From Candidatus Acidiferrales bacterium (GTDB lineage: Bacteria > Acidobacteriota > Terriglobia > Acidiferrales > UBA7541), in the NCBI GenBank assembly GCA_052146315.1, contig JBKQNJ010000095.1, positions 33,364 to 97,363 on the forward strand: DNA of 64,000 bases. The letters are read 5' to 3'. Position numbers and translations under genes: made by a program. This document shows positions 8,431 to 64,000 of this stretch, piece by piece; within the stretch, counting starts at the first letter, position 1, and the number at the start of each line of letters is the position of its first letter. Under the pieces are notes generated by a model. The model was not told the origin of the DNA and ran no database searches. It saw only the letters and a program-made list of their open reading frames with translations.

Positions 8431-9105
8431 CTATTGGTCGGCGCGGCGCTGGTAGCAGAGGAGGATGAGGTCGGCGCGGCGGCGGACGCCGAATTTCGCG
8501 AGCAAATTCGAGACGTGAAATTTCACGGTGCGCTCGGAGATGTGCAGGCGGTCGGCCACTTCCTTATTCGCGAGATTTTCGAGCAGGCCGCTGAGGACTT
8601 CCTGCTCGCGGCGGCTGAGTTCGCTCGGGGAATCGGCGCGCAGGCGGCGTCCCTGAGTGTTGCTGAGGATCGAATCGACGAATCGCGAAAGCACCGGGCG
8701 CGGCACCCAAATGCCGCCCGAAGCGACTTGCGGCAAAGCGCGCGCGAGCTGCTCGCGTGCCTCGGCGTAAGTGAGAATGCCTTTCACTCCCTGGCGGAGA
8801 AGGGCGTGGCTGTCCGCTTCCTTCAGCTTGTCCCCGACCACCAGGAGGCGCGCGCCGGAATGCTTGTCCAAAATGTTGCCGAGCAGGGCGCCTGTGGCCT
8901 GATGCGCCGCATGAGCATCGACGACGTAAACGGATGCCTTGGGGAGGTCGAGGTTGCGCAAGTCAGGCGCAAGCATGGAATCGAGCTGCTTCGACGTGAT
9001 CTGAAATCCCGAGTCTTCCAGCAGCCGGTGCAATTCGTCCAGCACCATGGGGTGCGGCGAGAGAAGGCAGACCTTGAGATTCGATTTGCCGTTGTTCTTG
9101 GACAT
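8431..9105 (-). CDS. LuxR/FixJ-type response-regulator-like protein with an atypical receiver
   Basis: C-terminal LuxR HTH: LSRREQEVLSGLLENLANKEVADRLHISERTVKFHVSNLLAKFGV. The N-terminal receiver-like fold keeps VYVVDAH and GVKGIL but has CLLSPHP where the acidic DD pair normally sits. Confidence 0.75.
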   Translation of the reverse strand: MSKNNGKSNLKVCLLSPHPMVLDELHRLLEDSGFQITSKQLDSMLAPDLRNLDLPKASVYVVDAHAAHQATGALLGNILDKHSGARLLVVGDKLKEADSHALLRQGVKGILTYAEAREQLARALPQVASGGIWVPRPVLSRFVDSILSNTQGRRLRADSPSELSRREQEVLSGLLENLANKEVADRLHISERTVKFHVSNLLAKFGVRRRADLILLCYQRRADQ

Positions 9106-9246
9106 GGCGCTTACCTGAATTGAGGCTAACGGAATTGGCTAGCGGGAGCAAGGCGGACGCAACGGGCTATTTCATACCAGACACGGGGTCAGAGGGGTAA
9201 GCGAATCGTTGATTGAAACTTTGCGAACAGCGCGTAATGCCGCAGG

Positions 9247-10314
9247 CTAATCAGAGTCAGTTTCAAGGATGCGGCGGGGGCGCTTCGCGGGAAGGCCCGC
9301 CTGGCGAACCTTGTAGAGCAGGGCGCGGTAGCTGATTTTCAATACTTCGGCGGCCTTGCGGCGATTCCACTGATTGGCCTGGAGCACCCTCAGGATCACA
9401 TCGCGCTCCATGCGGCGCGTGGCTTCCTGAGCGATGCGCTTGAGAGGAATATTGCCATCGGGCGTCGGTTCGTAGCTGAAGCGGGCGGGAGCGGACTCCA
9501 CCCGCTCGGCGTAGAACGAGTCTTCCGAGCCGAGGACGACGTAGCGAGCCACGCAGTTTTCGAGTTCACGGACATTGCCGGGCCAATCCCGCTGCTGAAG
9601 CAGGTGAATCGTTTCTTTCGAGAGCGGCGCGGCATCGCGCTGGAAGCGGCGATTGAACACGCCGCGGAGGTATTCGGCGAGATACGGAATGTCGGAGCGG
9701 CGTTCGCGAAGTGCCGGCAGCGTGATGCTGATCACGTTGATGCGGTAGAAAAGATCCGAGCGAAACCCCCCGCTTTCGATTTCCTTCTGGAGCCGGCGAT
9801 TCGTCGCGCAGATCACGCGCGCGTCCAGACGCTTTTCGTCGTGGCCGCCGATGCGCATGAAGTGGCCGTCCTGCAGAACGTGGAGGAGTTTGGCTTGCAG
9901 GCCGGAATCGATCTCTGCAATTTCGTCCATGAAGAGCGTGCCGCCCTGCGCCGTCTCCATGCGGCCGGGCTTATCGGCGTGCGCGCCCGTGAAAGCGCCC
10001 CTTTGAAAGCCGAAGAGCTCGCTTTCGATAAGCGCCCCGGGAATCGCCGGGCAATTGACTTTGACGAAGGGGCCATTTCGCCAAGGCGATTGGTTGTGGA
10101 TAAACCGCGCGAGGATTTCCTTGCCTGTGCCGCTTTCACCCAGGATGAGTATTGGTACGTTCAGTCCCGCGGCTCGTTCCACTTTTTGACGGACGGACTG
10201 CATTGCCGCCGATGGACCGAAATAGATGGATTCTGGCGGCACTTCGGCCTGATACGCTACGGTGTCGGTTCTTATGGGCGCGACAGAGGCCATCGACTGA
10301 AGTGCATTGCACAT
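9247..10314 (-). CDS. sigma-54-dependent transcriptional activator (bEBP) lacking an N-terminal sensory/receiver domain
   Basis: Walker A GESGTGKE, the sigma-54 contact loop GAFTGA, Walker B LFMDEI, WPGNVRELEN, and a C-terminal Fis-type HTH (AAEVLKISYRALLYKV). Only about 45 residues precede the AAA+ core. Confidence 0.85.
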   Translation of the reverse strand: MCNALQSMASVAPIRTDTVAYQAEVPPESIYFGPSAAMQSVRQKVERAAGLNVPILILGESGTGKEILARFIHNQSPWRNGPFVKVNCPAIPGALIESELFGFQRGAFTGAHADKPGRMETAQGGTLFMDEIAEIDSGLQAKLLHVLQDGHFMRIGGHDEKRLDARVICATNRRLQKEIESGGFRSDLFYRINVISITLPALRERRSDIPYLAEYLRGVFNRRFQRDAAPLSKETIHLLQQRDWPGNVRELENCVARYVVLGSEDSFYAERVESAPARFSYEPTPDGNIPLKRIAQEATRRMERDVILRVLQANQWNRRKAAEVLKISYRALLYKVRQAGLPAKRPRRILETDSD

Positions 10315-12980: not shown

Positions 12981-14309
12981 CTATTCCACATCGGTAGGCA
13001 GCAGGAAGGAAAAAGAGCTTCCGCGTCCCGGTTCGCTATCGACCCAGATTTTTCCGCGATGAGCCTGGATCAATCGTTTCGTGATTGCCAATCCCAAGCC
13101 CATGCCCGAAGACGAAGGATCGACGCGTACAAATTCTTCGAAGATTTCCTGATGGAACTCGGCCGCAATCCCGTGACCCGTGTCCGTGACTGAAATCAAC
13201 ACGCTATTGGCCTTGGCGGGGGTGCTGCGGCGCCGCTCCTGCGACGGAGACGCGTCCGAAATGCGCCGCTCCCAGAAATGCGGCTGCGCGCGCAACGTCA
13301 CCAAGCCCGTGGCGGGCGTGTGCTTGAGCGCGTTGTCGAGCAGATTGAAGATGCACTGCTGCACCTTCTGGTAATCGAATTTGAAGAGCGGAAGATCGGG
13401 ATGCACCTGCACGTCGAGGCGCACGCTGGCGCGCTGAAACGCGTCGCCCCAACGGCTCGCCAGATCGTTGATGCAGTCGCGGAGATCGTTTTCGCAAAGC
13501 TGCAGAACGAGTTTGCCGCTCTCGAGCGCCGAATAGTTGAGGAACATCGAGACGAGGCGCACGAGGCGATCGCAGCTCTCCTTCGATTCGCGCAAAATGT
13601 CCTGCTGGCGCTCGCTGAGTTTTCCGAGCGAACCCGAAAGCAGCAGGTCGTAATAGCCCTTCATCACCGCGAGCGGCGTTTTCAATTCGTGCGCGGCGGA
13701 GCCGAGCAGCACGGTCTTCTGGCGATTGGCCTCCTGCAGGCGCAGGTAGGCGGCCAGAAGATTCCTGTACGTAATCTCGCGCTCCTGCATCAGTTCCTGG
13801 ACGGTCTGGCGCATCTGCGTCTCGTCAGCAGAGACTTCTTGGGGGAGCGCCTCGATGTAGACGGCGAGCCAGTCGGGCTCCGGGAGCCAGCGGATACGCG
13901 CGACGGCCTTGCCCTGGCCGGCTTCGATCGGGAGCAGCACGTCCTGCTTGCCTCGTTCCAGCTGGCTTAGAATTTCCTTGCCATCGGCGTTAAGAATGTC
14001 TCGAAAGAGGTTCGGGTCGGGCTTGGCGCTCCACGCGAGGGGGTTCAACGCGTTCTGCGCATGGAGATTCGTGAAGACAATCAGTCCCGCGCGGTCGGAA
14101 ACAAGCAAGGGGCGATCCAAAGCATCGAGCAGACTAGCGACTGCTTGAAAACTTACCTGATCACTCGTTTGCTTTTCAGCCGCTGCCGTACTTTTGGCCA
14201 ACTCGCCCTCCACCGGCTCCGGGAACGAGCAAAGACACCACTCGAATCCTTGTCTCAGAGAATCGAGTGGGAATGGGCTCGAAGGTTTGTATGCTCGCAA
14301 AGGCGCCAA
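12981..14309 (-). CDS. sensor histidine kinase (soluble, PAS-like N-terminus)
   Basis: H-box SAAHELKTPLAV, N-box NLLDNALKHTP, G-boxes VTDTGHGI and GMGLGLAI. No obvious transmembrane segment. Lies 27 nt upstream of the NtrC-type RR gene, so probably an operon. Confidence 0.85.
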   Translation of the reverse strand: MAPLRAYKPSSPFPLDSLRQGFEWCLCSFPEPVEGELAKSTAAAEKQTSDQVSFQAVASLLDALDRPLLVSDRAGLIVFTNLHAQNALNPLAWSAKPDPNLFRDILNADGKEILSQLERGKQDVLLPIEAGQGKAVARIRWLPEPDWLAVYIEALPQEVSADETQMRQTVQELMQEREITYRNLLAAYLRLQEANRQKTVLLGSAAHELKTPLAVMKGYYDLLLSGSLGKLSERQQDILRESKESCDRLVRLVSMFLNYSALESGKLVLQLCENDLRDCINDLASRWGDAFQRASVRLDVQVHPDLPLFKFDYQKVQQCIFNLLDNALKHTPATGLVTLRAQPHFWERRISDASPSQERRRSTPAKANSVLISVTDTGHGIAAEFHQEIFEEFVRVDPSSSGMGLGLAITKRLIQAHRGKIWVDSEPGRGSSFSFLLPTDVE

Positions 14310-14461
14310 ATAGAGTCAATGGTAAAAGCGTCCTAGCGTTTGCACAAACGTGGAAATGAATTGCAGTAAACCGGAACATTTCAAAGGCTATACGGGGTGA
14401 GTCCATTCGCACGGCTTAGGCATCTAACTGAAAAGGAGCGGTTTACGAAAGCGGAATGGAG

Positions 14462-14477
14462 GGGTAGAGAACTTGCA
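14462..14477 (+). promoter_or_regulatory. weak candidate sigma-54 promoter upstream of the second PilZ gene
   Basis: GGGTAGAGAACTTGCA: GG (14463-64) and GC (14475-76) are correctly spaced and the -12 element TTGCA is good. The -24 flank is poor. It lies 43 nt before the ATG at 14520. Confidence 0.35.
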
Positions 14478-14519
14478 GAGGAAGGGGCAGCCCAACGGAG
14501 TACTAATACTCGGGTACCA

Positions 14520-14876
14520 ATGAGCGTACGAGAAAACATCGTGCAGCAGAAGGTTGCGCAGTCTTACGACGATCGGCGCCGATTCCATCGGATCCACCTC
14601 CAGGTGCCGCTCTTCATCCGTGGTAAGGATGCTCACGGGGAGCAGTTTATGGAGTTGTGTAAGACGCTTGATATCAGTGGATTAGGGGCCTTCGTCATCT
14701 GTCCGCGCTCCCTCACGATCAACGACATCATTATCCTGACGATCCCGGCTCCTTCAATCATCTCATCGGGCCTGGTGCCAGCCGGGATGCCTCCGATCCA
14801 AGCCAGGGTCAAGCGGCAACAGGAAGCCGGCGAAGCACACCTCGTAGGCGTCGAGTTCCTGAAGCCTATTGGGTAG
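14520..14876 (+). CDS. PilZ domain protein
   Basis: DDRRRFHRIHL (RxxxR) and TLDISGLGAFV (DxSxxG). I chose the ATG at 14520 (MSVRENIV...). Confidence 0.7.
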   Translation: MSVRENIVQQKVAQSYDDRRRFHRIHLQVPLFIRGKDAHGEQFMELCKTLDISGLGAFVICPRSLTINDIIILTIPAPSIISSGLVPAGMPPIQARVKRQQEAGEAHLVGVEFLKPIG

Positions 14877-25286: not shown

Positions 25287-25527
25287 CGAATCACCAGTGG
25301 CACAGGCAATCCCGCCCGTGCATCCTTCCTCATCCGCACGCACAGCGCCTTCGCCCACACCGCGCGCGGAACCCCGCGTATCCTACACCCCGTCGCCGCC
25401 TTTGCGACAGACCGGCCGCCCGTGTGATCGCTCCGGCGGTTTCGTAGCGGCTGTCCTGCGAGTCCTGATAGAAGTCGAAGGAGCGGGGCCGAATAGACAA
25501 CAACGTCTTGAAACTTCACACCTGGCG

Positions 25528-26352
25528 CTACGAGGCTGGAGAGGTCGCGAAGGTCTTGTTTCGAAAGGAAGCCTCAACTGTTGCGGCAATCGAAAGGCAA
25601 TCTTCCGCTGCAAGTACAGGGTGGCGAACGCGGCGAGGGAATTCGTCATAGGTCCGTCCGTCAAGCTTTCTGCCCGTCGCAGACTTACGAACGCCGCCCC
25701 ACTGCTTAAAGAAGAAGGCCGCTCCTGCACGCTGACATTGGTCTCGAACAGACAGCACCCACTCCCTATTCATGGGCCTCGCCCCTGGTCCACTTTCGCC
25801 GCCCACTATCACCCAATGGATTCCATCCAGATCAAACCGTCCGAGGTCTTCGAGCAAGGGCTCGACGGAGAGAAATCGAATCTCCGCGCTCGCTTTCCGC
25901 AAGTCGTCGATGCGCGGAAGGCCGTACTTTCGATCCTCAACACTTACTCCCCACCATATATGCGGCTGGCACGCCGCGAACGCCAAGCTAGAATTCAGAA
26001 GTTCTCGAAGGCGCTCAGATCGTTTCGTCAGCACCTGATAGGTATGCCATCTGGCCGCGACCATAACCTTCGCGACCTCCTTGATGTAGGCGTCCGGTAC
26101 GGCGTCATGAAACAGATCACTCATCGAGTTGACGAAGACCATCTTTGGCGCACGCCATCGCAACGGCTCGCCGAGCTTCTCGGGAACCAAGCGCAAGTCG
26201 AACCCTTGCTCGTACGGATGCCTTCTGACTCCCCGGAATCGCTCCGCGAACGTTTCCGCGTAGCAGTGCTTGCAGCCGGGGCTAATCTTTGTGCATCCCC
26301 TTACCGGATTCCAGGTGGCATCCGTCCACTCGATTGCGGATACTTGGGCCAT
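25528..26352 (-). CDS. DUF5131 / phage Gp37-Gp68 family protein (three-Cys-motif protein)
   Basis: MAQVSAIEWTDATWNPVRGCTKISPGCKHCYAETFAERF is the characteristic N-terminus, with a Cx6Cx2C motif. The ATG at 26352 lies 2 nt after the stop of the upstream TcmP-like ORF. Confidence 0.8.
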   Translation of the reverse strand: MAQVSAIEWTDATWNPVRGCTKISPGCKHCYAETFAERFRGVRRHPYEQGFDLRLVPEKLGEPLRWRAPKMVFVNSMSDLFHDAVPDAYIKEVAKVMVAARWHTYQVLTKRSERLRELLNSSLAFAACQPHIWWGVSVEDRKYGLPRIDDLRKASAEIRFLSVEPLLEDLGRFDLDGIHWVIVGGESGPGARPMNREWVLSVRDQCQRAGAAFFFKQWGGVRKSATGRKLDGRTYDEFPRRVRHPVLAAEDCLSIAATVEASFRNKTFATSPAS

Positions 26353-26354
26353 TA

Positions 26355-27181
26355 CTACCTCCGGTACTTCGAGAAAATCTCGCGAGCGATCTTTTCTGCA
26401 GTGCTGTTCTGCGATGCGAAGAAGAGATAGTAAACTATCGCGCCTTTGGAATTCTGCATCGGTAGAGGCTCCGGCACGCACTTAAAACCCCCGGCTTCCT
26501 TGAGCCTCTTCCGAAATGCTTCGGCGATTACCTCGTTTGGCTCTTTCTCGACCATAGGTCCGAACAGGCCCTGCGTAGTTCCGTATGCGACCTGTCTCCA
26601 AGACTCGTCGCCCCAAAACCGATTCATTCTCTCGACTTGTTCTGGCCTTGCTCGCTCAGGATTTCTCCATATGGCATTCCTGTTCATGTCCTGTACCGGG
26701 AAGTTCAAGAACACGTCCAAGGTTTTCATCTCTCCGGCAGTCGCCATCACTTTCCAATCTAGATGGAGTCCATATGGATCAAGCACGCAAAGTCCTCGAC
26801 GATACTGGTCATATCGGACTCGGGGGAAAACATCCTGCAGTAGTATTTCATTGCAGTCGCCTTGATAAATGAAAACATCCTTGCGCAGGCCGACAAGCTC
26901 TTGCAGGCTTCGATCTTTTCTGGGGCGATGTCGATGAGATGAAATTCCCGGAATTCCGGCCGGACAGCCAGCGCGTTAAGCGGGCTTCCGGGAACAAGTT
27001 CCTGGCTTGCCCTCGAGAGGTGCTTCCCAGCGCCGGCGAAAGCGTCGATGTAGACATGCGAAAGTGCGGCCTTCGTCTGCGAGGAGAGAATTATCGAGTA
27101 GGCAGCGGCGTATTTCTTCAGAATCTCCAGTTTGATCTCGGACCACACTCCGATCTTGTCGAATTGAAGGTGCTTGGCCAT
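26355..27181 (-). pseudogene. three-Cys-motif partner protein TcmP-like, split by a frameshift (or a sequencing error)
   Basis: The N-terminal ORF (26759-27181) has YIDAFAGAGKH, a methyltransferase-motif-I-like sequence. The C-terminal ORF (26355-26786) begins LDPYGLHLDW. My translation of the C-terminal frame upstream gives ...SLQELVGLRKDVFIYQGDCNEILLQDVFPRVRYDQYRRGLCVLDPYGL, so one continuous protein is restored by a single-nucleotide shift. Confidence 0.65.
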
Positions 27182-50587: not shown

Positions 50588-50687
50588 CTTGCGCGTATCC
50601 TCTCCGAACGTTTGCGCGGGGCTTCCTTGACACCGTTTCCAAGCGACATATAATGAGGTCTAAAGCTCAGCGTTTTGGGGAAATCTC

Positions 50688-51221
50688 ATGTTTCTGGATG
50701 TGAAAGAACTGGCAGTCCGAAAGACGCGCATCCGGAAAAGCTACGCTCCCGGAACCATCGATTTTCATTCCGGCGAATTCCGGCAGGTCGAACCCCTGGA
50801 AGTGCGTGCAACGGCGGAACTTATCGAAGGCCAGATCCGCGTCTACGGCAACCTGCACACGAGAATCGAGCTGGTCTGCGCGCGTTGCCTCGACACGGTG
50901 ATCGAGGAGATCAGCCGCGACTTCGATCTCTTCTACCGTCCCATGACCTCGATCGCTCAGGACGATGAAGTGCGCCTGGCGCTGGGTGACACCGAGATCG
51001 CCTTCTTCGAAGGCGACGGCCTATTCCTGGCGGACGTTCTGGCCGAGCAGGTGAACCTCGCGCTGCCCATGAAGGTGATCTGCTCGAGCGATTGCCGCGG
51101 GCTTTGCCCCCACTGCGGCGCAAACCTCAACAACGAAGAATGCCGCTGCGAGAAAAACGGCAGCGATCCCAGGCTTGCCCCGCTCGCGCGCCTGAAGCAG
51201 GACTGGTTCAAGAAGCAATAA
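50688..51221 (+). CDS. yceD: YceD/DUF177 family ribosome-maturation protein
   Basis: CARCL ... C..DC.GLCPHCGANLN...C.C Cys cluster. It occupies the conserved position upstream of rpmF. Confidence 0.8.
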   Translation: MFLDVKELAVRKTRIRKSYAPGTIDFHSGEFRQVEPLEVRATAELIEGQIRVYGNLHTRIELVCARCLDTVIEEISRDFDLFYRPMTSIAQDDEVRLALGDTEIAFFEGDGLFLADVLAEQVNLALPMKVICSSDCRGLCPHCGANLNNEECRCEKNGSDPRLAPLARLKQDWFKKQ

Positions 51222-51472: not shown

Positions 51473-51516
51473 GTTTTCCCCGCCGGGCCGTCTGCAAGGT
51501 GCTCCCTGGAGCAAAG

Positions 51517-52533
51517 ATGATAACCATCGCTCTCGATGCCATGGGTGGAGACCATGCGCCACGCGCAGAGGTCGAAGGCGCGATTCTGGCCGCGCGCGAA
51601 CTGGGAGTGCGCGTGTTGCTGGTCGGCGTCGAAGAGACGGTCCGCCAGGAGCTGGCGCGCCACAAGCTCCGCGACCTGCCCATCGAGGTGGTGAACGCCA
51701 CCGACGTCATCACGATGACCGATTCACCCTCCCACGCTTTTCGCCGCAAGAAAGAAAGCTCGCTGCATGTGGCGACGCGACTTGTCCGCGATGGGAAGGC
51801 CGACGCGCTCGTCAGCGCAGGCAATACGGGTGCGGTGATGACGGTAGCGCGATTCGTCCTCGGTACGCTGCCTTCGGTCGATCGCCCCGCTCTGGCCGCG
51901 GCTTTCCCGAACATGAAGGAAAAAGTTTCGATCATTCTCGACGTCGGCGCGAACGTCGATTCGAAGCCCGAACAGATCGAGCAGTTCGCCGTGATGGGCG
52001 AAATCTATTACCGCACTATCTGGGGTGTGAAGCGGCCCCGCGTGGCGCTCCTTTCGATCGGCGAAGAAGAGATGAAGGGCAACGAACTCACGCGTGAGGC
52101 AGGCGCTTTGCTGAGGCAGACATCCCTGAATTTTACGGGCAACGTCGAGGGCCGCGACGTCTTTCGAGGCAACGTGGAAGTGGTGGTATGCGACGGCTTC
52201 ATTGGCAATATCGCGCTCAAGATCAGCGAAGGCGTGGTCGAGCACATCGGCGGCATGCTGAAGAAAGCGATCAAGAGCAGCCTCAGATCGCAGCTGGGCT
52301 ACGCGCTCTCGAAGCGCGCCTTTGACGATTTCCGAAAGCGCACGGACTATTCCGAATACGGCGGCGCGCCGCTGCTCGGCGTCAAGGGCATCACCGTGAT
52401 CGGCCACGGCCGGTCGAATCCCAACGCGGTGAAGAACGCCATTCGTGTGGCGGCGGAACTATGCCGCGCGCGCGTCAACGAGAAAATCGAACAGGAGCTT
52501 TCCGCTGCCGCCGCCATCCTGGCGCGCGGCTGA
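51517..52533 (+). CDS. plsX: phosphate acyltransferase PlsX
   Basis: [25 protein letters not shown], and FTGNVEGRD...G..DVVVCDGF.GN. GGAG precedes the ATG at 51517. Confidence 0.9.
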
Positions 52534-52555
52534 ACGAGCGGAAAACGCAACCGTC

Positions 52556-53515
52556 ATGAGCAAGATCGCTTTCCTCTTTCCCGGCCAGGCCTCGCAATAT
52601 CAGGGGATGGGCCGAGAACTCGACGCGAACTTCCCTGAATCGCACGCAATCTTCGAAGAGGCCGACGCCGCGCTTGGATTTCCGCTATCGAAACTCTGCT
52701 TTGAAGGTCCTGAAGACGAGCTCAAGCTGACCGCAAACACGCAGCCCGCGATCCTCACGGTTTCGGTGGCGGCGTACCGCGCGCTCGAAAAACATGGCGT
52801 TACGCCCGATCTGGTTGCCGGACACAGCCTCGGCGAATATTCGGCGCTCGTGGCCGCGGGAGCGCTTGCGTTTTCCGATGCGGTGAAGCTCGCGCGGCGG
52901 CGCGGGCAGTACATGCAGGAGGCGGTTCCCGCCGGCGAAGGTGCCATGGCCGCGATCCTGGGACTTTCGCCGTCGGACGTCGCGGAAATCTGCAAGAAGG
53001 CGGCGAACGGCGAAGTGGTCTCCGCGGCAAACCTGAATTCGCCCGACCAGATTGCCATTTCGGGTCATGCGGGCGCTGTGAAACGCGCCGTCGAGATCGC
53101 CTCGCAGTCGGGCGCAAAGCGCGCCGTCATGCTGGCCGTGTCCGCGCCGTTCCACTGCGCGCTGATGCTTCCGGCGCAAGAGCGCTTTGAGGCCGATCTC
53201 CGCGCGACGAAATTCAACGCGCCGCGCTTTCCGGTGATCACGAATGTGGACGCGGAGGCAGTCGAGTCGGGCGACCAGGCGCGCGAGGCGCTGATTCGCC
53301 AGGTGTCATCGCCGGTGCGCTGGCTCGAATCCGTCCGCGAGATGATCGACCAGGGCGCAAACATCTTCGTCGAGGTCGGGCCGGGCAAAGTTCTTTTGGG
53401 GTTGCTGCGCCAGATCGATCGCTCCGTGCGCTGCTTCAACGTGGAAGATAGCGCAAGCCTGCAGGCCACGCTGGACAAAATCGCGCAGGCGCGCGCCGAA
53501 GTCGCGGACACCTAG
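52556..53515 (+). CDS. fabD: malonyl-CoA:ACP transacylase
   Basis: IAFLFPGQASQYQGMG, TANTQPAIL, VAGHSLGEYSAL (active-site Ser), SAPFHC.LM. Confidence 0.9.
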   Translation: MSKIAFLFPGQASQYQGMGRELDANFPESHAIFEEADAALGFPLSKLCFEGPEDELKLTANTQPAILTVSVAAYRALEKHGVTPDLVAGHSLGEYSALVAAGALAFSDAVKLARRRGQYMQEAVPAGEGAMAAILGLSPSDVAEICKKAANGEVVSAANLNSPDQIAISGHAGAVKRAVEIASQSGAKRAVMLAVSAPFHCALMLPAQERFEADLRATKFNAPRFPVITNVDAEAVESGDQAREALIRQVSSPVRWLESVREMIDQGANIFVEVGPGKVLLGLLRQIDRSVRCFNVEDSASLQATLDKIAQARAEVADT

Positions 53516-53547
53516 GCCCTGTTTTTTGCAGTGTCGGGTCTGCTTAG

Positions 53548-54147
53548 ATGGTAGTTGTTGCGATCAATCCGATGAAACTCGACGGGCCTTGGACTGCGGG
53601 CTACGTTCTCGAAAGGCAACACACTATCAGTAGCGAGTTCCTGGGCCATGATTCCTTTGGACACCCGCAGTTCGACTCGAAATACTCCGCCCTTGGCGAG
53701 CTCGTTTACCGGCTAAAGAACAGAGGAGATAAGAACGCTGTCGATTCCATCGCGGATACGGCGGTACAATTTATCAATGAGCGTTGGAAGCCAGAGTTCG
53801 ACTTGATCGTTCCGATGCCGCCGTCTCGAAGGCGCGAGGCGTATCAACCCGTCATCGAGATCGCAAATGCCATCGGCACTCGGTTGGAAAAGCCGGTGGA
53901 CCCTGACGCGGTAAGCAAGATCAAGGAGACGCCACAACTCAAAGATGTCTACGACTTTGCTGAGCGGAAGCAGCTGCTACGAGACGCTTTTAGGGCAAAA
54001 GAAGCTGTTCGCGGGAAGGCGATCCTGTTGGTTGACGATCTGTACCGTTCCGGCGCGACGGCGGTCGTTGTAGCGCAAAGTCTCCTAGCCGGAGGAGCGA
54101 CCCACGTTTGCATGCTTGCTGTGACGAAGACGCGGACGCGAAGATGA
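53548..54147 (+). CDS. ComF-like type-I phosphoribosyltransferase-fold protein (no zinc finger)
   Basis: C-terminal PRPP loop GKAILLVDDLYRSGATAVVVAQSL, and central DLIVPMPPSRRR as in ComF-family proteins. Low G+C. Confidence 0.7.
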   Translation: MVVVAINPMKLDGPWTAGYVLERQHTISSEFLGHDSFGHPQFDSKYSALGELVYRLKNRGDKNAVDSIADTAVQFINERWKPEFDLIVPMPPSRRREAYQPVIEIANAIGTRLEKPVDPDAVSKIKETPQLKDVYDFAERKQLLRDAFRAKEAVRGKAILLVDDLYRSGATAVVVAQSLLAGGATHVCMLAVTKTRTRR

Positions 54148-54668
54148 CGAAAGTATTCATTGCTGGGTCCAGGGCATTGTCGCGCCTCAACGCGGACGTG
54201 AAGCGCCGAATCGACACCATGATCGAGAAGGACTTTACGATCTTGGTCGGTGACGCAAATGGCGCCGATAAGGCCGTTCAGCATTATCTTGCTGAAAGGC
54301 ACTTCCAGAACGTCATCGTCCATTGCATGGCGGGTAATTGCCGCAACAACTTGGCGGGCTGGCCCACTCGGGAAATTATTGCTGCCCCGGGCGCCCGAGG
54401 TTTCGCCTACTACTCAACCAAAGACCTGGCAATGGTTGAAGACGCCGAATACGGCTTCATGCTTTGGGACGGTGAGAGCAAAGGCACACTCAATAGCGTC
54501 ATCAATATGGTCCATCAGAACAAAATGGTCGTGGTTTACTTCGCTCCCAAGAAGCAATTCCAGAATTTGCGTTCGCCGAGTGATGTAGCTCGGTTGCTTG
54601 CCAATCTCGATCGCGCGAAAGTGCAACAGCTTGAGCGTGAGCTGGGAATCGAACGACAGACCGTCTGA
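54144..54668 (+). CDS. SLOG-superfamily-like (DprA/Smf-LOG, DUF2493/YpsA-like) protein
   Basis: MTKVFIAGSRALSRLN...DFTILVGDANGADKAVQHYLAE is a Rossmann-like beta-strand followed by a Gly-rich loop. The ATG overlaps the upstream stop (ATGA, 54144-54147). The assignment is by motif resemblance only. Confidence 0.5.
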   Translation: MTKVFIAGSRALSRLNADVKRRIDTMIEKDFTILVGDANGADKAVQHYLAERHFQNVIVHCMAGNCRNNLAGWPTREIIAAPGARGFAYYSTKDLAMVEDAEYGFMLWDGESKGTLNSVINMVHQNKMVVVYFAPKKQFQNLRSPSDVARLLANLDRAKVQQLERELGIERQTV

Positions 54669-54756
54669 GCTTTCCGCACCCAAGATTTCTACGGAGTGAA
54701 ACATCTGGTGCTTAGCTTGCGCGGGGAGTTAGAGGTACGGTAGGGTTTCTGCCTCT

Positions 54757-55503
54757 ATGTTTTCGCTCAAAGATAAAGTCGCTCTCGTTACCGGCGCGTC
54801 GCAAGGCATCGGCCGGGCCACTTCGCTTGTGCTGGCCGATGCGGGCGCCAAGGTTGTGCTGGCGGCGCGCAGCACCGATAAGCTCGCCACGCTCGCCGAG
54901 GAAATCGCAGCCGCCGGGGGCGAAGCGCTGGCCGTCCCGATGGACGTGGCCAACGCCGAGCAAGTGAAATCCGGTTTCCAGCAGGCGCTCGCGAAATTCG
55001 GCAGGCTCGATATCCTCGTGAATAACGCCGCTATCACGCGCGACATGCTGGCGCTGCGGATGAAGCTCGACGATTGGAACGCCGTGCTGCAGACGAACCT
55101 CACCGGCGCACATCTCTGCATCCAGCAGGCGCTCGGCGTGATGCTCAAGCAGCGCTCGGGCCGCATCATCAATATTTCGTCCGTGGTCGCGGAGACGGGC
55201 AATGCTGGTCAGGCGAACTACGTCGCGTCGAAGGCGGGGCTAATCGGGCTGACGCGCGCGATTGCCGTCGAGGTCGCGTCGCGAAACATCACCGTGAATG
55301 CGGTCGCGCCCGGCTTTGTCGAAACGCCAATGACCGATCCGCTCTCGCAGGAATTGAAAGACAAGATGAAGTCGCTCATCCCGCTCGCGCGCTTTGGCAA
55401 GGACCGCGAGATCGCCGCCGCCATCGTTTTTCTCGCGAGCGACGAAGCCGCCTACATCACCGGGCAGGTGCTCGACGTGAACGGCGGCATGCACATGGGG
55501 TAA
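54757..55503 (+). CDS. fabG: 3-oxoacyl-ACP reductase
   Basis: ALVTGASQGIGRA, LVNNAAIT, S...NYVASKAG (SDR catalytic triad), ITGQVLDVNGGM. Confidence 0.9.
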   Translation: MFSLKDKVALVTGASQGIGRATSLVLADAGAKVVLAARSTDKLATLAEEIAAAGGEALAVPMDVANAEQVKSGFQQALAKFGRLDILVNNAAITRDMLALRMKLDDWNAVLQTNLTGAHLCIQQALGVMLKQRSGRIINISSVVAETGNAGQANYVASKAGLIGLTRAIAVEVASRNITVNAVAPGFVETPMTDPLSQELKDKMKSLIPLARFGKDREIAAAIVFLASDEAAYITGQVLDVNGGMHMG

Positions 55504-55508
55504 CCTCG

Positions 55509-55811
55509 ATGGATCGTGACGCAGCGCTAGCCGTCGCCGACAGTATCTTAGCGGATCTTCGGAAGCTCCCTTACGCCGAATGCTGCCGAATGATACCGTC
55601 GGTCTCGACGCGGAGCCTTCGTGGAACGGATGGGAAAGCCTATGAGCTGGAGATTCAAGCGACGTGGGACGAGAAAAAGAACGGCAACGTTCGCGTCCTC
55701 GTCGCGGTCAGCGGCGGTGGGTTGAGCGACTTTGTACCGTTGTGTCGAGATTTCATCATCGCGCCGGACGGTTCATTTGTCGGAGAGAGTCCGGAATCAA
55801 CGGACGCGTAA
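55509..55811 (+). CDS. hypothetical protein (100 aa) inserted between fabG and acpP
   Basis: An ATG 5 nt after the fabG stop gives MDRDAALAVADSILADLRKLPYAECCRM... No motif recognised. Confidence 0.45.
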   Translation: MDRDAALAVADSILADLRKLPYAECCRMIPSVSTRSLRGTDGKAYELEIQATWDEKKNGNVRVLVAVSGGGLSDFVPLCRDFIIAPDGSFVGESPESTDA

Positions 55812-55936
55812 ACGGCGCAAAGGTTGACCCCGCGATACGTGGCGCATAGAATGGGCAGGTTAAATGCGGGGTGCGACCCCTGCCTAGCGTGCCGCCCCGC
55901 GGGGCGAAGACAGCCGAAATCGGAGGAATAATTAGA

Positions 55937-56222: not shown

Positions 56223-57467
56223 TTGAGCCGCCGAGTTGTCGTGACAGGCGTTGGACTGGTCTGCGGATGCGGCATCGGGACCGATGAGGTCTGGCGCAAC
56301 CTGCTGGCCGGAAAAAGCGGCATTGCCCGCGTCACCCAGTTCGATGTGTCCGCGTTCGATTGCCAGATCGCCGGCGAGGTGAAGGGCTTCGATCCGCTCA
56401 ACTGGATCGAGAAAAAAGAAGTGAAGAAGATGGCGCGGTTCATCCACATGGCGATGGCCGCGTCGGATTTTGCAGTCCAGATGGCCAAGCTCGAAGTCAC
56501 GCCGGGCATCGCCGATGCCACCGGCGTGTACATCGGATCGGGTATTGGCGGATTCGACGTCATCGAGCGCGAGCATTCGAAATATTTGAATGGCGGCCCA
56601 GGCAAGATCTCCCCGTTTTTCATTCCTTCGGCGATTGTGAATCTCGCCGCGGGCAACGTCTCCATCCGCTACGGCGCGAAGGGCCCGAATTCCGCGACGG
56701 CTACGGCTTGCTCGGCCGGGGCTCACGCCGTGGGCGACGCCTACAAAATTATCCAGCGCTGCGACGCCGAGGTGATGATCGCCGGCGGCTCGGAAGCGGC
56801 CGTGACGCCCATGAGCATCGGCGGATTCAGCGCGATGCGCGCTCTTTCGACGCGCAACGACGAGCCGGAACGCGCCAGCCGTCCTTTCGATGCTGGCCGC
56901 GACGGCTTTGTCGTCGGCGAAGGCTCGGGCATCTTGATCCTCGAGTCGCTCGAATTCGCTCAGCGCCGCGGCGCGAACATCATCGCCGAGATTGTCGGCT
57001 ATGGGATGTCCGGCGACGCGTATCACATCACGCAGCCCGCCGAGGGAGGCGACGGCGGCTATCGCGTGTCGCTCGCGGCCATAAAAGACGCCAAAATCAC
57101 GCCGGATGATGTCGGCTACGTAAACGCGCACGGCACTTCTACGCCCATGGGTGATGCGATCGAAACTTCCGCGCTCCGCCGCGTCTTCGGCGAACGCGCG
57201 AAAAAAGTCCCCATCAGCTCAACGAAATCGATGACCGGGCATCTTCTTGGCGGCGCGGGCGGGCTCGAAGCCGGCATCAGCGTCCTGGCGCTGCGCGATC
57301 AGATCCTTCCGCCGACGATCAATCAGGAGACGCCCGATCCCGCTTGCGATCTCGATTACGTCCCGAATCATGCGCGGAAGGCCGAAGTCGTGTATGCGCT
57401 TTCGAACTCTTTCGGCTTCGGAGGCACGAACGCATCGTTGATCTTCAAGCGCTGGGAAGGGCGATAA
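56223..57467 (+). CDS. fabF: 3-oxoacyl-ACP synthase II
   Basis: RRVVVTGVG, ATACSAGAHAVG (active-site Cys), NAHGTSTP, SMTGHLLGGAG, NSFGFGGTNA. TTG start with an AGGAG RBS. Confidence 0.9.
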   Translation: MSRRVVVTGVGLVCGCGIGTDEVWRNLLAGKSGIARVTQFDVSAFDCQIAGEVKGFDPLNWIEKKEVKKMARFIHMAMAASDFAVQMAKLEVTPGIADATGVYIGSGIGGFDVIEREHSKYLNGGPGKISPFFIPSAIVNLAAGNVSIRYGAKGPNSATATACSAGAHAVGDAYKIIQRCDAEVMIAGGSEAAVTPMSIGGFSAMRALSTRNDEPERASRPFDAGRDGFVVGEGSGILILESLEFAQRRGANIIAEIVGYGMSGDAYHITQPAEGGDGGYRVSLAAIKDAKITPDDVGYVNAHGTSTPMGDAIETSALRRVFGERAKKVPISSTKSMTGHLLGGAGGLEAGISVLALRDQILPPTINQETPDPACDLDYVPNHARKAEVVYALSNSFGFGGTNASLIFKRWEGR

Positions 57468-62052: not shown

Positions 62053-64000
62053 GTGATACACACACGATTGTCTTTGCGTGGATTTGTGTCTGCGCTTCTT
62101 GCTTGCTCCGCAGTTTTCTTCCTCTGCATCTCCGTGGCGCTGGCCCAATCGGGCACCACGGGTGCGCTGACGGGTACCGTCACCGATCCTTCGGGCGCAG
62201 TCATCGCCGGCGCCACCGTCACAGCCACGAATATTGGCACGGGCCAAGCGCGCACCTCGACGACAGACGCCAGCGGGAGCTATAAATTTTCGCTGCTGTC
62301 TCCCGGCAATTACAGCGTGAAAATTTCTGCTGCGGGATTCAAGACCTCCGAAGTCAAGTCCATCACGGTCAACGCGACGGAGACCGCCGTGCTGAACCAG
62401 CCCCTTGCCGTCGGCGCGCAATCGGAACAAATTGTCGTCGAATCCACCACGGAGCGGCTGCAGACGCAGAATGCCACCATGGGAACCTTGGTGGGGTCGC
62501 AGACCGTAACCACCCTCCCGCTCAGCTCGCGCAACTACACCAACATCATCGATCTTTCGCCGGGCGTGGTGGCCAACGTCGCCAGCGCCGCCGCGGTCGG
62601 CAACGGCACGCAGGACATCAACGTCAACGGGATGGGCTCGGATCAGAACAATTACATGATGGATGGCGCGACGCTCACCAACTACGGCAGCGGCGGCGCG
62701 GCGCAGTCCGGCAACTTCCCGGGCATTGCCATTCCCAATCCGGATTCGATTCAAGAGTTCAAAATCCAGACTTCGCAATACGACGCCGAATACGGCCGCA
62801 ACCCCGGGGCCAGCGTCAACGTCACCACCAAGGATGGCACGAATACCTTCCACGGCGATGCTTGGGAGTTCTTCCGCAATAGCGCCCTCGACGCCAACGA
62901 TTTCTTCAACAAGGCGAGCCAGGCGCAACTTCATGCATCTGGTGTTGGTCCAGCCAACAAGCCCGAGACATTAAATGAGAATATGTTCGGCGGCACGCTG
63001 GGCGGTCCAATCATCAAAGACAAACTGTTCTTCTTCGGTTCTTACCAGGGTTTCCGTCAGCTCAACGCGGTAGGCACCAATGGCTTTGCCACGGGTCTCA
63101 GCACGGGCATCAGCCTCTATCCGTTTACCGCGCCGGGTGCAAACGGAGGCCGCGGCAACAGCGTAAGCGGCAGCATCCCGTTGGACTACATCGCCACGAA
63201 CCCGACCTGTGCCTATGCGTCCTATCGGCAATACCTGGGATGCGCGTTTGGCGGGACCTCCAGTCTTCTTTCATTCATTGGCCTTGGTGACGGCGTCCCC
63301 GTAGCGACGAATGGATCGAATATCAATCAGGTGGCCATTAACGCCCTCCAATTACCCGGCCCCAAGGGCGGCTTGAGCCAGGGCTATTATTTCCCCGGTG
63401 CCGTCTTTCAAAGTAATGGACTGCCCCAGATTAGTGGCTTAGCTGTCGCGGCCGTGCCGACTCGCGCGAACGAAGATCAGTACCTGGGTAACGTCGAGTA
63501 CGTGGTCGACTCTAAGAACACCTTCTTTCAGAAGTTTTTCTATTCCAAGGATCCGCAGGTCCAATCTTTTACTTGTCTTGACGGCATCGGCAACTTGGTC
63601 AATAGCTGCGCGCCGGGCGCTCCGGAGAATGTGAATTACACGTCTCTGAACGAAACACTCAAGCTCACCACGGTCGCTACCAGCAACCTCGTCAATGAAG
63701 CTCTGTTTTCGTTTATTCGAACGACGACGGTCGCCGTCCCTGGAAACTATATAACGGCTTGCGCTATAGGGGTTGTTCCGCCGCTCGCCAACGGGAACTG
63801 CTCCAACATCCCGAGCAGCAACAACATCAATCCGATCCAGCTGCAGATTCCCACTGTTTCTATCGCGGGTCTGCCGCTTCTTGCGCCAGCCGGCGTCGGG
63901 GCCGTTGGTTATGCGACGGGTGCACTGAATACAGGCGGAAACTTCTTCTCGTCGGCGACGAATTACTTCAACACTTTTGAGGCGAAGGACAACATCTCCT
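62053..64000 (+). CDS. TonB-dependent receptor with N-terminal CarboxypepD_reg domain (partial; continues beyond the right edge)
   Basis: Not in the ORF track. My translation from GTG 62053 gives (M)IHTRLSLRGFVSALLACSAVFFLCISVALAQSGTTGALTGTVTDPSGAVIAGATVTATNIGTGQARTSTTDASGSYKFSLLSPGNYSVKISAAGFK...YDAEYGRNPGASVNVTTKDGTN.FHG... It stays open to position 64000. Confidence 0.8.
   Translation, partial: MIHTRLSLRGFVSALLACSAVFFLCISVALAQSGTTGALTGTVTDPSGAVIAGATVTATNIGTGQARTSTTDASGSYKFSLLSPGNYSVKISAAGFKTSEVKSITVNATETAVLNQPLAVGAQSEQIVVESTTERLQTQNATMGTLVGSQTVTTLPLSSRNYTNIIDLSPGVVANVASAAAVGNGTQDINVNGMGSDQNNYMMDGATLTNYGSGGAAQSGNFPGIAIPNPDSIQEFKIQTSQYDAEYGRNPGASVNVTTKDGTNTFHGDAWEFFRNSALDANDFFNKASQAQLHASGVGPANKPETLNENMFGGTLGGPIIKDKLFFFGSYQGFRQLNAVGTNGFATGLSTGISLYPFTAPGANGGRGNSVSGSIPLDYIATNPTCAYASYRQYLGCAFGGTSSLLSFIGLGDGVPVATNGSNINQVAINALQLPGPKGGLSQGYYFPGAVFQSNGLPQISGLAVAAVPTRANEDQYLGNVEYVVDSKNTFFQKFFYSKDPQVQSFTCLDGIGNLVNSCAPGAPENVNYTSLNETLKLTTVATSNLVNEALFSFIRTTTVAVPGNYITACAIGVVPPLANGNCSNIPSSNNINPIQLQIPTVSIAGLPLLAPAGVGAVGYATGALNTGGNFFSSATNYFNTFEAKDNIS

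Follow-up and report, generated by a model that had tools for sequence, protein, structure and literature searches.

The Two-gene Cassette between fabD and fabG

The DNA analyzed here is a stretch of 64,000 nucleotides (the window) from contig JBKQNJ010000095.1 of a Candidatus Acidiferrales bacterium. Its plus strand carries an operon with the order yceD-rpmF-plsX-fabD-[ORF1+ORF2]-fabG-acpP-fabF, in which two small open reading frames (ORFs) are located between fabD and fabG. ORF1 encodes a phosphoribosyltransferase (PRTase), and ORF2 encodes a predicted SLOG (Smf/DprA-LOG) domain protein. Together, the two genes form a unit that is conserved and mobile. The cassette and its borders have the following features.

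52553..53515, plus strand: fabD, malonyl-CoA:acyl carrier protein (ACP) transacylase, upstream flank (PF00698, 8.8e-46)
53516..53547, plus strand: spacer between fabD and ORF1, 32 nt (23-36 nt at other occupied loci)
53548..54147, plus strand: ORF1, ComF-like type I PRTase, putative toxin/effector (ATG start, 199 aa)
54019..54069, plus strand: phosphoribosyl pyrophosphate (PRPP)-binding loop AILLVDDLYRSGATAVV, ORF1 residues 158-174
54144..54147, plus strand: ATGA overlap of the ORF1 stop and the ORF2 start
54144..54668, plus strand: ORF2, predicted stand-alone SLOG domain, putative antitoxin/sensor/antidote (ATG start, 174 aa)
54243..54281, plus strand: SLOG glycine-rich loop LVGDANGADKAVQ, ORF2 residues 34-46
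54465..54494, plus strand: second SLOG motif WDGESKGTLN, ORF2 residues 108-117
54669..54756, plus strand: spacer between ORF2 and fabG, 88 nt (12-87 nt at other occupied loci)
54757..55503, plus strand: fabG, 3-oxoacyl-ACP reductase, downstream flank (adh_short_C2, 5.8e-69)

The original prediction, made by reading the letters alone, had placed the two ORFs between fabD and fabG, and its coordinates and ATGA overlap are exact. Since the stop and start codons overlap, translational coupling of the two genes is implied. The quoted motifs also lie where they were claimed, AILLVDDLYRSGATAVV from residue 158 of ORF1 and the ORF2 start as MTKVFIAGSR...ILVGDANGADKAVQHYL.

The composition of the cassette is foreign, as had been proposed from two single-line G+C counts, both of which were correct (30/60 at 53701-53760 and 44/60 at 53101-53160). 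The G+C content of the cassette is 0.545 against a median of 0.612 for the window, which is the seventh lowest value among 629 segments of the same size. At third codon positions (GC3), the pair has 0.63-0.65, against 0.76-0.82 in the neighbouring genes. The low G+C content persists in all six occupied genomes described below.

Target-site duplications, terminal inverted repeats and flanking repeats were searched for at the window junction, and none were found; an integrase or transposase was not found at the fab junction either. No promoter-like or terminator-like site was detected in the fabD-ORF1 spacer, and examination of the junction gave nothing convincing as a terminator or promoter that would isolate the cassette. 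Since, in addition, the gap between ORF2 and fabG is just 12 nt in one relative (L172), fabG should be expressed either by transcription running through the cassette or from a promoter within the latter. The final ~25 nt of the ORF2-fabG spacer (GAGGTACGGTAGGGT...) are similar to what natively precedes fabG in L087, where the site is empty.

ORF1 Is a ComF-like Type I Phosphoribosyltransferase

The PADLOC model of PsyrT (PDLC03928) matched ORF1 at 5.7e-20, with ORF1 residues 46-197 aligned to positions 537-686 of the 689-position profile, and the PADLOC model of ShosT matched at 1.2e-9. The models of the retron III-A PRTase, PsyrT and ShosT match both ORF1 and its plasmid homologues. With Pfam PF00156 the score was 19.5 bits, below threshold, and with NCBIfam comF (TIGR00201) it was 48.5 bits against a cutoff of 233.55. 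The AlphaFold model of ORF1 has a predicted local distance difference test (pLDDT) score of 91.5. By Foldseek, it matched the PRTase domain of PurF (1.4e-6) and ShosT (8zvd, 2.6e-5), and the best TM-score was obtained with Helicobacter pylori ComFC (7p0h; TMq 0.57, root-mean-square deviation 4.4).

The N-terminal ~45 residues of the ORF1 model form a three-stranded beta-sheet "hood" (residues ~17-46) before the PRT core, an arrangement shared with ComFC. In ComFC, a 4-Cys zinc finger is conserved and required (PMC9005727). The sole cysteine of ORF1 is C188, and none is present in the N-terminal 187 residues; thus, the zinc finger is absent. The sequence VDDLYRSGAT in the PRPP loop, with the acidic pair D163 D164 and S168-G169-A170-T171, was invariant in 26 homologues; the corresponding signature in ComFC is DDIITTGTTL (PMC9005727). 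Taken together, the PsyrT and ShosT profile matches, the PurF, ShosT and ComF folds and the absence of an N-terminal cysteine show that ORF1 is a type I PRTase of the ComF-like kind, in which the PRPP loop is intact and the zinc finger is missing, as had been read from the sequence. The source annotation calls homologues of ORF1 "ComF family protein" or "competence protein ComFC". One homologue, from a "Candidatus Acidiferrales" metagenome-assembled genome (MAG), is 100% identical over 96% of ORF1.

ORF2 Is Predicted to Be a Stand-alone DprA-like SLOG Domain

Sequence searches of the PDB with ORF2, with a profile of its close family and with a profile of its broad family gave no meaningful match, and ORF2 was therefore placed by fold comparison only. 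The structural model (pLDDT 93.5, predicted TM-score 0.88) has its first strand beginning at residue 3 and consists of a SLOG Rossmannoid domain followed by two short C-terminal helices. Foldseek matched it with DprA (4ljr, 1.7e-4) and ShosA (8zva, E = 4.3e-4, TMq 0.63), followed by TRPM2/5, LOG proteins (YvdD 1t35, 3sbx) and the SLOG domains of ThsA. At the sequence level, sub-threshold matches were detected for YAcAr (0.014), DprA (0.04) and ShosA (0.014). The DprA models PF02481 and TIGR00732 gave 13.6 bits (cutoff 29.6) and 13.8 bits (cutoff 191.15), respectively. ORF2 also matches phrog_289 (4.3e-11).

Among 67 diverse members of the ORF2 family, G8, G36, D37, G40, D42, Q46, R67, D94, W108, S112 and G114 are invariant. 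The glycine-rich loop, which reads GDAxGAD, contributes G36, D37, G40, D42 and Q46, and the second motif contributes W108, S112 and G114. The motif WDGESKGTLN resembles SGSLIT of DprA more than PGGxGTxxE of LOG. Weak DprA matches were detected in 18 of the 67 members and weak YAcAr matches in 13. The confident model thus places ORF2 as a stand-alone DprA-like SLOG domain, in agreement with the fold that had been predicted, and its family is covered by no curated model. Membership in the YpsA family was also considered but gained no support; the YpsA Pfam model gave no match, and the top 50 Foldseek matches did not include YpsA (2NX2).

The Pair Is Widespread and Carried by Plasmids

A search with ORF2 gave 3084 matches in 90% clusters and 1810 clusters at 50% identity. 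In a scan of one genome per GTDB species, relatives were found in 522 genomes, chiefly of Acidobacteriota; the other carriers belong to Deltaproteobacteria, Nitrospiraceae/Nitrospinota, Methylomirabilota, Dehalococcoidia/Anaerolineales, Planctomycetota and Binataceae. The original prediction had suggested a minimal variant of the PRTase and SLOG logic. The pair is indeed reduced to both cores; however, its family is not rare and has thousands of homologues.

A PRTase homologue was located directly upstream of the ORF2 relative in 73 of 84 loci, mostly with the same 4-nt overlap. When four PRTase homologues were looked up independently, the SLOG gene came next in 4/4, again with this overlap. 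The PRTase gene was frameshifted, truncated or absent beside an intact SLOG gene in ~15/84 loci, a count that is biased since the 84 loci were chosen by ORF2 homology. Frameshifted PRTase genes were found in L018, L029, L083 and L011, and only remnants in L012, L034, L052, L063 and L075. In seven loci, no PRTase trace was detected within 1.5 kb of the SLOG gene. The loss of the PRTase while the SLOG protein is kept suggests that the PRTase is the harmful partner.

One MAG (SAR122) contains two copies of the module, L011 and L034, the latter with a C-terminal PRTase remnant only. L011 (5413-6543) had the appearance of a PRTase-SLOG fusion; it is in fact a PRTase gene that reads into the SLOG gene after a frameshift at the N-terminus and the loss of its stop codon. 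Genuine in-frame fusions were found in the 50% representative library: P0390 (404 aa), a PRTase-SLOG fusion, and P0345 (344 aa), a NADAR-SLOG fusion, both of which keep all motifs of the ORF2 family. Among relatives, SLOG domains of the ORF2 type also occur fused to Abi_alpha, HEPN-AbiU2, NADAR, DUF4326, DUF488 and PRTase domains.

The neighbouring genes differ from locus to locus and in some cases belong to classical toxin-antitoxin modules. The pair adjoins HicA and MazE in L002, pilus genes in L004, PemK/MazE and a Y1 transposase in L169, and HicB-MNT/HEPN in L170. When 140 neighbour proteins from 37 loci were compared with Pfam and PADLOC, 112 Pfam families were obtained, each in at most three proteins, with no conserved third gene; the PADLOC matches were generic Ser/Thr kinases only.

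ORF2 homologues were present on 101 plasmids, 55 of which are conjugative, and the conjugative carriers include plasmids of Klebsiella, Agrobacterium, Sinorhizobium and Listeria. In the Listeria plasmid pLI100, the pair is equally minimal (191 + 173 aa) and adjoins rep and IS1216. On the plasmids of Xanthomonas (pXAM48), Agrobacterium and Sinorhizobium, a PRTase of ~196 aa is followed by a SLOG protein of ~280 aa with a helix-turn-helix (HTH) domain, and the neighbours include VapC, SIR2, HNH, ImmA/IrrE and a recombinase. Homology between the plasmid PRTases and ORF1 extends over the full length (39% identity, 2e-40; 29%, 2e-24), and the SLOG proteins are 35-46% identical to ORF2. The plasmid pairs have the same gene order and the same start/stop overlap as ORF1 and ORF2 and are homologous in both genes. 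Unlike ORF2, however, the proteobacterial SLOG proteins are fused C-terminally to a HigA-type antitoxin HTH (PF21716, 7.5e-23) or to HTH_37. PGAP labels the plasmid copies "ComF family protein" and "addiction module antidote protein", an automatic, non-experimental annotation. Among the INPHARED phages, only a match of 28% identity was detected.

The Insertion in the fab Operon Is Old

The arrangement of fabD, the pair and fabG is confined to the closest relatives (L001, L005, L006, L007, L172, L173 and L174), and the pair at this junction belongs to a single Acidiferrales lineage. ORF1 identity within this group goes down to 70%. At 80 metagenomic FabD loci with 57-80% FabD identity, the pair was present in 0/80. 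The closest empty sites have a fabD-fabG spacer of 5-30 nt (L086, L089 and L090) or 237 nt (L087). Since the junction is empty in close relatives and the pair is found elsewhere in other taxa, the junction comparison that had been suggested did not show universal presence.

In six occupied genomes both genes are intact, with a ratio of nonsynonymous to synonymous substitution rates (dN/dS) of 0.07-0.21, against 0.04-0.15 in the flanks. Thus, ORF1 and ORF2 are under purifying selection in the fab-site lineage. Identities of the flanks and of the cassette were compared pairwise.

Window and L005: flanks 95.8%, cassette 92.0%
Window and L007: flanks 95.1%, cassette 77.5%
Window and L172: flanks 94.3%, cassette 79.4%
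Window and L001: flanks 84.0%, cassette 85.5%
L007 and L172: flanks 96.0%, cassette 74.6%

The cassette tree disagrees with the flanks. We read this mismatch as the trace of an old insertion whose cassette alleles were later exchanged between lineages, with the conserved fab genes providing the arms for recombination. Evolutionary rates that are uneven could also account for it in this comparison of six taxa. The insertion into the fab operon that had been proposed is real and foreign; however, it is old and inherited across the lineage, not recent.

Two observations concern individual contigs. L006 (DASXDV010000050.1, 2852 nt) is labelled "Candidatus Tumulicola sp." and carries fabD, the pair and fabG, with an ORF2 of 87% identity; the explanation is either mis-binning of this contig or a transfer of the segment from one phylum to another. 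In L005, which comes from a long-read MAG, the FabF matches at 8594-9873 are split over several frames. This is probably due to assembly indel errors and calls for caution with pseudogene calls in such MAGs.

Comparison with ShosTA, PsyrTA and Other Systems

ShosTA is a type IV toxin-antitoxin and anti-phage system of Escherichia coli APEC O1 that defends against T7. ShosT (424 aa) consists of a pyrophosphatase (PPase) and a PRTase domain, and ShosA (328 aa) of a SAM and a DprA domain (PMC11961720, PMC12961424). The N-terminal hydrolase/pyrophosphatase domain of ShosT comprises residues 1-164, and the D331A/D332A substitution abolishes toxicity (PMC11961720). The ShosT PRTase binds PRPP and disturbs purine metabolism and DNA replication, whereas the dimeric, DprA-like ShosA binds single-stranded DNA (ssDNA) and RecA and neutralises ShosT without contact (PMC11961720, PMC12961424). 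The SAM domain and the C-terminal alpha14 of ShosA are needed for stability and dimerisation (PMC12961424). Because ShosA is unstable, the toxin is set free once T7 Gp0.7 shuts off transcription (PMC11961720, PMC12961424).

As in ShosTA, a PRTase gene is followed by a gene for a DprA-like SLOG protein, the acidic pair of the PRPP loop is kept in ORF1 (D163 D164, corresponding to D331 D332 of ShosT), and the two proteins find ShosT and ShosA, respectively, by Foldseek. In contrast, ORF1 lacks the N-terminal pyrophosphatase domain and has only the ~45-residue beta-sheet before the PRT core, and ORF2 lacks the N-terminal SAM domain and the C-terminal alpha14/tail. Both proteins are accordingly much shorter than ShosT and ShosA, as the original prediction noted. 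The ShosTA-type logic that it recognised holds for the combination of a PRTase with a DprA-like partner; however, ORF1 is closer to the PRTase of PsyrT than to that of ShosT.

The C-terminal PRTase of PsyrT is the best sequence match of ORF1, and in PsyrTA and RqlHI, too, the toxin gene precedes that of its partner. The N-terminal region of PsyrT, a RecQ-like helicase of ~530 residues, is absent from ORF1, which corresponds to the last ~150 of the 689 profile positions. DprA homologues are reported as the antitoxins of shosTA, psyrTA and rqlHI (PMC9122126), and the defence PRTases form one clade (bioRxiv 10.1101/2025.09.30.679545).

ComFC and DprA are physical partners in competent bacteria (PMC9005727). 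ORF1 differs from ComFC in the missing zinc finger and in its score far below the family cutoff. ORF2 shares the Rossmann/SLOG core with DprA but lacks its accessory domains, and the ORF1/ORF2 pair is mobile and patchy in distribution, unlike ComFC and DprA. By comparative genomics, a strongly coupled gene pair of a YpsA-family SLOG protein and a PRTase has been placed among nucleotide-centred conflict systems (Burroughs et al. 2015; Brzozowski et al. 2019; PMC6459960); ORF2, however, has no similarity to YpsA that is detectable by Pfam or Foldseek. The pair thus belongs outside ShosTA, PsyrTA, ComFC and DprA proper.

Proposed Function of the Pair

The pair shows generic features of a toxin-antitoxin (TA) module: small co-directional genes, a stop/start overlap, mobility, patchy distribution, carriage on plasmids, multiple copies and antitoxin-type DNA-binding domains in relatives. 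Because its relatives are fused to antitoxin HTH and abortive infection (Abi) domains, lie in TA-rich neighbourhoods and are carried by conjugative plasmids, we consider that the pair is probably a horizontally acquired, minimal conflict module of a PRTase toxin and a DprA-like SLOG protein, acting in TA or abortive infection; ShosTA and PsyrTA/RqlHI are in the same class. The toxicity, neutralisation, trigger and defence roles of the pair are inferred by analogy with the characterized systems.

In the proposed mechanism, ORF1 would bind PRPP via its intact DD...SGAT loop and transfer or consume phosphoribosyl groups. This activity would perturb nucleotide pools or modify a nucleobase target and would be toxic when unopposed. 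ORF2, translationally coupled on the shared mRNA, would neutralise ORF1, either indirectly, by ssDNA binding and recombination repair as in DprA and ShosA, or directly, by binding or processing a nucleotide product. Interruption of the ORF2 supply would unmask ORF1 and lead to arrest or death of the cell, that is, to addiction or abortive infection; possible triggers are plasmid loss, phage shut-off of host transcription and titration of ORF2 by phage ssDNA. In this Acidiferrales lineage, the module has landed between fabD and fabG, where it is necessarily transcribed with the operon and has been kept intact for long.

The ShosA-like route is uncertain for ORF2 because ORF2 has neither the SAM domain nor alpha14, because its family has a strongly conserved polar pocket, and because its relatives are fused to NADAR and DUF4326. 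For both of these domains, processing of ribosyl N-glycosidic or phosphate linkages has been predicted (PMC9503650). Given these features, ORF2 may instead sense or process nucleotides directly, and it might even hydrolyse what the PRTase produces. The basic character of both proteins (isoelectric point, pI, ~9.1) fits either role of ORF2.

Several points weigh against a conflict module. No defence or TA family dominates the top 25 families listed in the neighbour scan, and a search of the IMG/VR viral contigs gave no relatives. The sequence similarity of ORF2 to ShosA and DprA is below threshold only, and the PADLOC model of PsyrA gave no match with ORF2 at E <= 1, whereas a Listeria homologue matches it weakly (0.0053). 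The in-frame fusion P0390 fits a simple "labile antitoxin" model poorly. A toxic module would not usually be expected to reside stably throughout a lineage in an operon that is essential and presumably highly expressed. No toxicity is known for ComFC, which has the closest TM-score to ORF1. Finally, the searched literature holds no experiment on the ORF1/ORF2 family, consistent with the earlier description of the pair as uncharacterised.

A sensor-effector defence pair would be cooperative and not opposed: ORF2 would sense phage ssDNA or a nucleotide signal and switch ORF1 on. Rousset et al. proposed such a role for DprA with a PRTase (PMC9122126), and SLOG domains serve to sense ligands in Thoeris ThsA and in TRPM channels, both of which were recovered by Foldseek with ORF2. 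The fusion P0390, with all motifs kept, and the basic pI of both proteins are also in line with cooperation. However, ShosTA and PsyrTA act as toxin and antitoxin without direct contact (PMC11961720, PMC12961424), the SLOG protein carries a HigA-type antitoxin HTH in relatives, and decay removes the PRTase and keeps the SLOG protein. This explanation is consequently unlikely.

We regard as similarly doubtful a specific form of the antidote model, a reversible phosphoribosylation resembling DarT/DarG. ORF1 would add ribose-5-phosphate to a nucleobase in ssDNA, RNA or a free metabolite, and ORF2 would be a LOG-like phosphoribohydrolase that erases it. If so, the antidote would be an enzyme removing an adduct and not a DNA-repair mediator, and the position within the rpmF-plsX-fab operon would couple the balance of writer and eraser to growth-rate-controlled transcription.

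It is less probable still that the pair has no part in conflict and is a metabolic or signalling pair, in which a PRTase and a LOG-like hydrolase make or recycle a modified nucleotide or free base, in chemistry of the cytokinin or salvage type, and which has spread by its usefulness. The LOG proteins among the Foldseek matches of ORF2, the purifying selection on both genes and their stable maintenance in a housekeeping operon are compatible with this idea, as is the fact that the PRTase and LOG reactions are formally opposite on base-ribose-5-phosphate bonds (PMC9503650). However, DprA and ShosA outscore LOG in Foldseek, and the antitoxin-HTH and Abi fusions, the TA-rich neighbourhoods and the conjugative plasmids indicate conflict. 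The LOG signature PGGxGTxxE is also absent from ORF2, which has WDGESKGTLN.

That ORF1 and ORF2 are a degenerate competence duo, the ComFC and DprA of this lineage acting on incoming ssDNA in natural transformation, is very improbable: although ComFC gives the best TM-score with ORF1, DprA heads the structural matches of ORF2, PGAP names homologues "ComF family protein" and ComFC and DprA interact (PMC9005727), the zinc finger that ComFC requires (PMC9005727) and the SAM and C-terminal domains of DprA are absent, the comF and dprA scores (48.5 and 13.8 bits) are far under their cutoffs, and the pair has foreign composition, patchy spread, plasmid copies, empty sites in close relatives and two copies in one MAG.

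With the conflict module as the preferred explanation, the domain logic is already known, and what is new is the minimal form, the breadth and the residence in the fab operon. To our knowledge, only ShosTA has been dissected among the PRTase toxins with DprA-like partners, an emerging class of phage-defence TA systems. The present family reduces the PRTase and SLOG system to two cores of ~200 and ~175 residues. Since the ShosA model gives only 0.014 for ORF2, tools of the PADLOC type would not call the pair, and PADLOC does not detect it despite its breadth (522 species genomes and conjugative plasmids). The minimal pair is the simplest test bed for asking what the PRTase phosphoribosylates or depletes, and whether the SLOG partner acts via DNA and RecA or via nucleotide chemistry. 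The residence in the fab operon is a natural experiment in which a potentially toxic module has long been tolerated in an essential operon, and the site illustrates allele turnover at a fixed chromosomal position.

Other Features of the Operon and the Window

The remaining annotated features of the operon are as follows.

50627..50654, plus strand: candidate operon promoter, perfect sigma-70 consensus TTGACA-16-TATAAT (consensus match only)
50688-51221, plus strand: yceD
51499-52533, plus strand: plsX
56223-57467, plus strand: fabF

The sigma-70 consensus match is located 34 nt 5' of the yceD start and is a candidate promoter of the whole yceD-rpmF-plsX-fab operon, including the cassette.

The fabG-acpP spacer is ~430 nt (55504-55936) and contains a 97-aa ORF (55518-55811, plus strand) with no match in Pfam or PHROG; in L001, L172 and L174, fabG and acpP are only 118-188 nt apart. 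With this ORF, the operon seems to have received a second small insert.

Elsewhere in the window, a low-G+C island at ~25400-26700 (0.53-0.55) contains an ORF (25528-26481, minus strand) that matches DUF5131 (PF07505, 1.5e-100), which we take to be the phage Gp37/Gp68 family. The ORFs flanking this gene have no family match, and the island is possibly another foreign insert. A further low-G+C stretch at ~13600-14400 overlaps a histidine kinase gene (12981-14309, minus strand) and adjoins a gene for a PilZ-domain protein (14397-14876, plus strand). The G+C content also dips to 0.56 at ~62600-62900.

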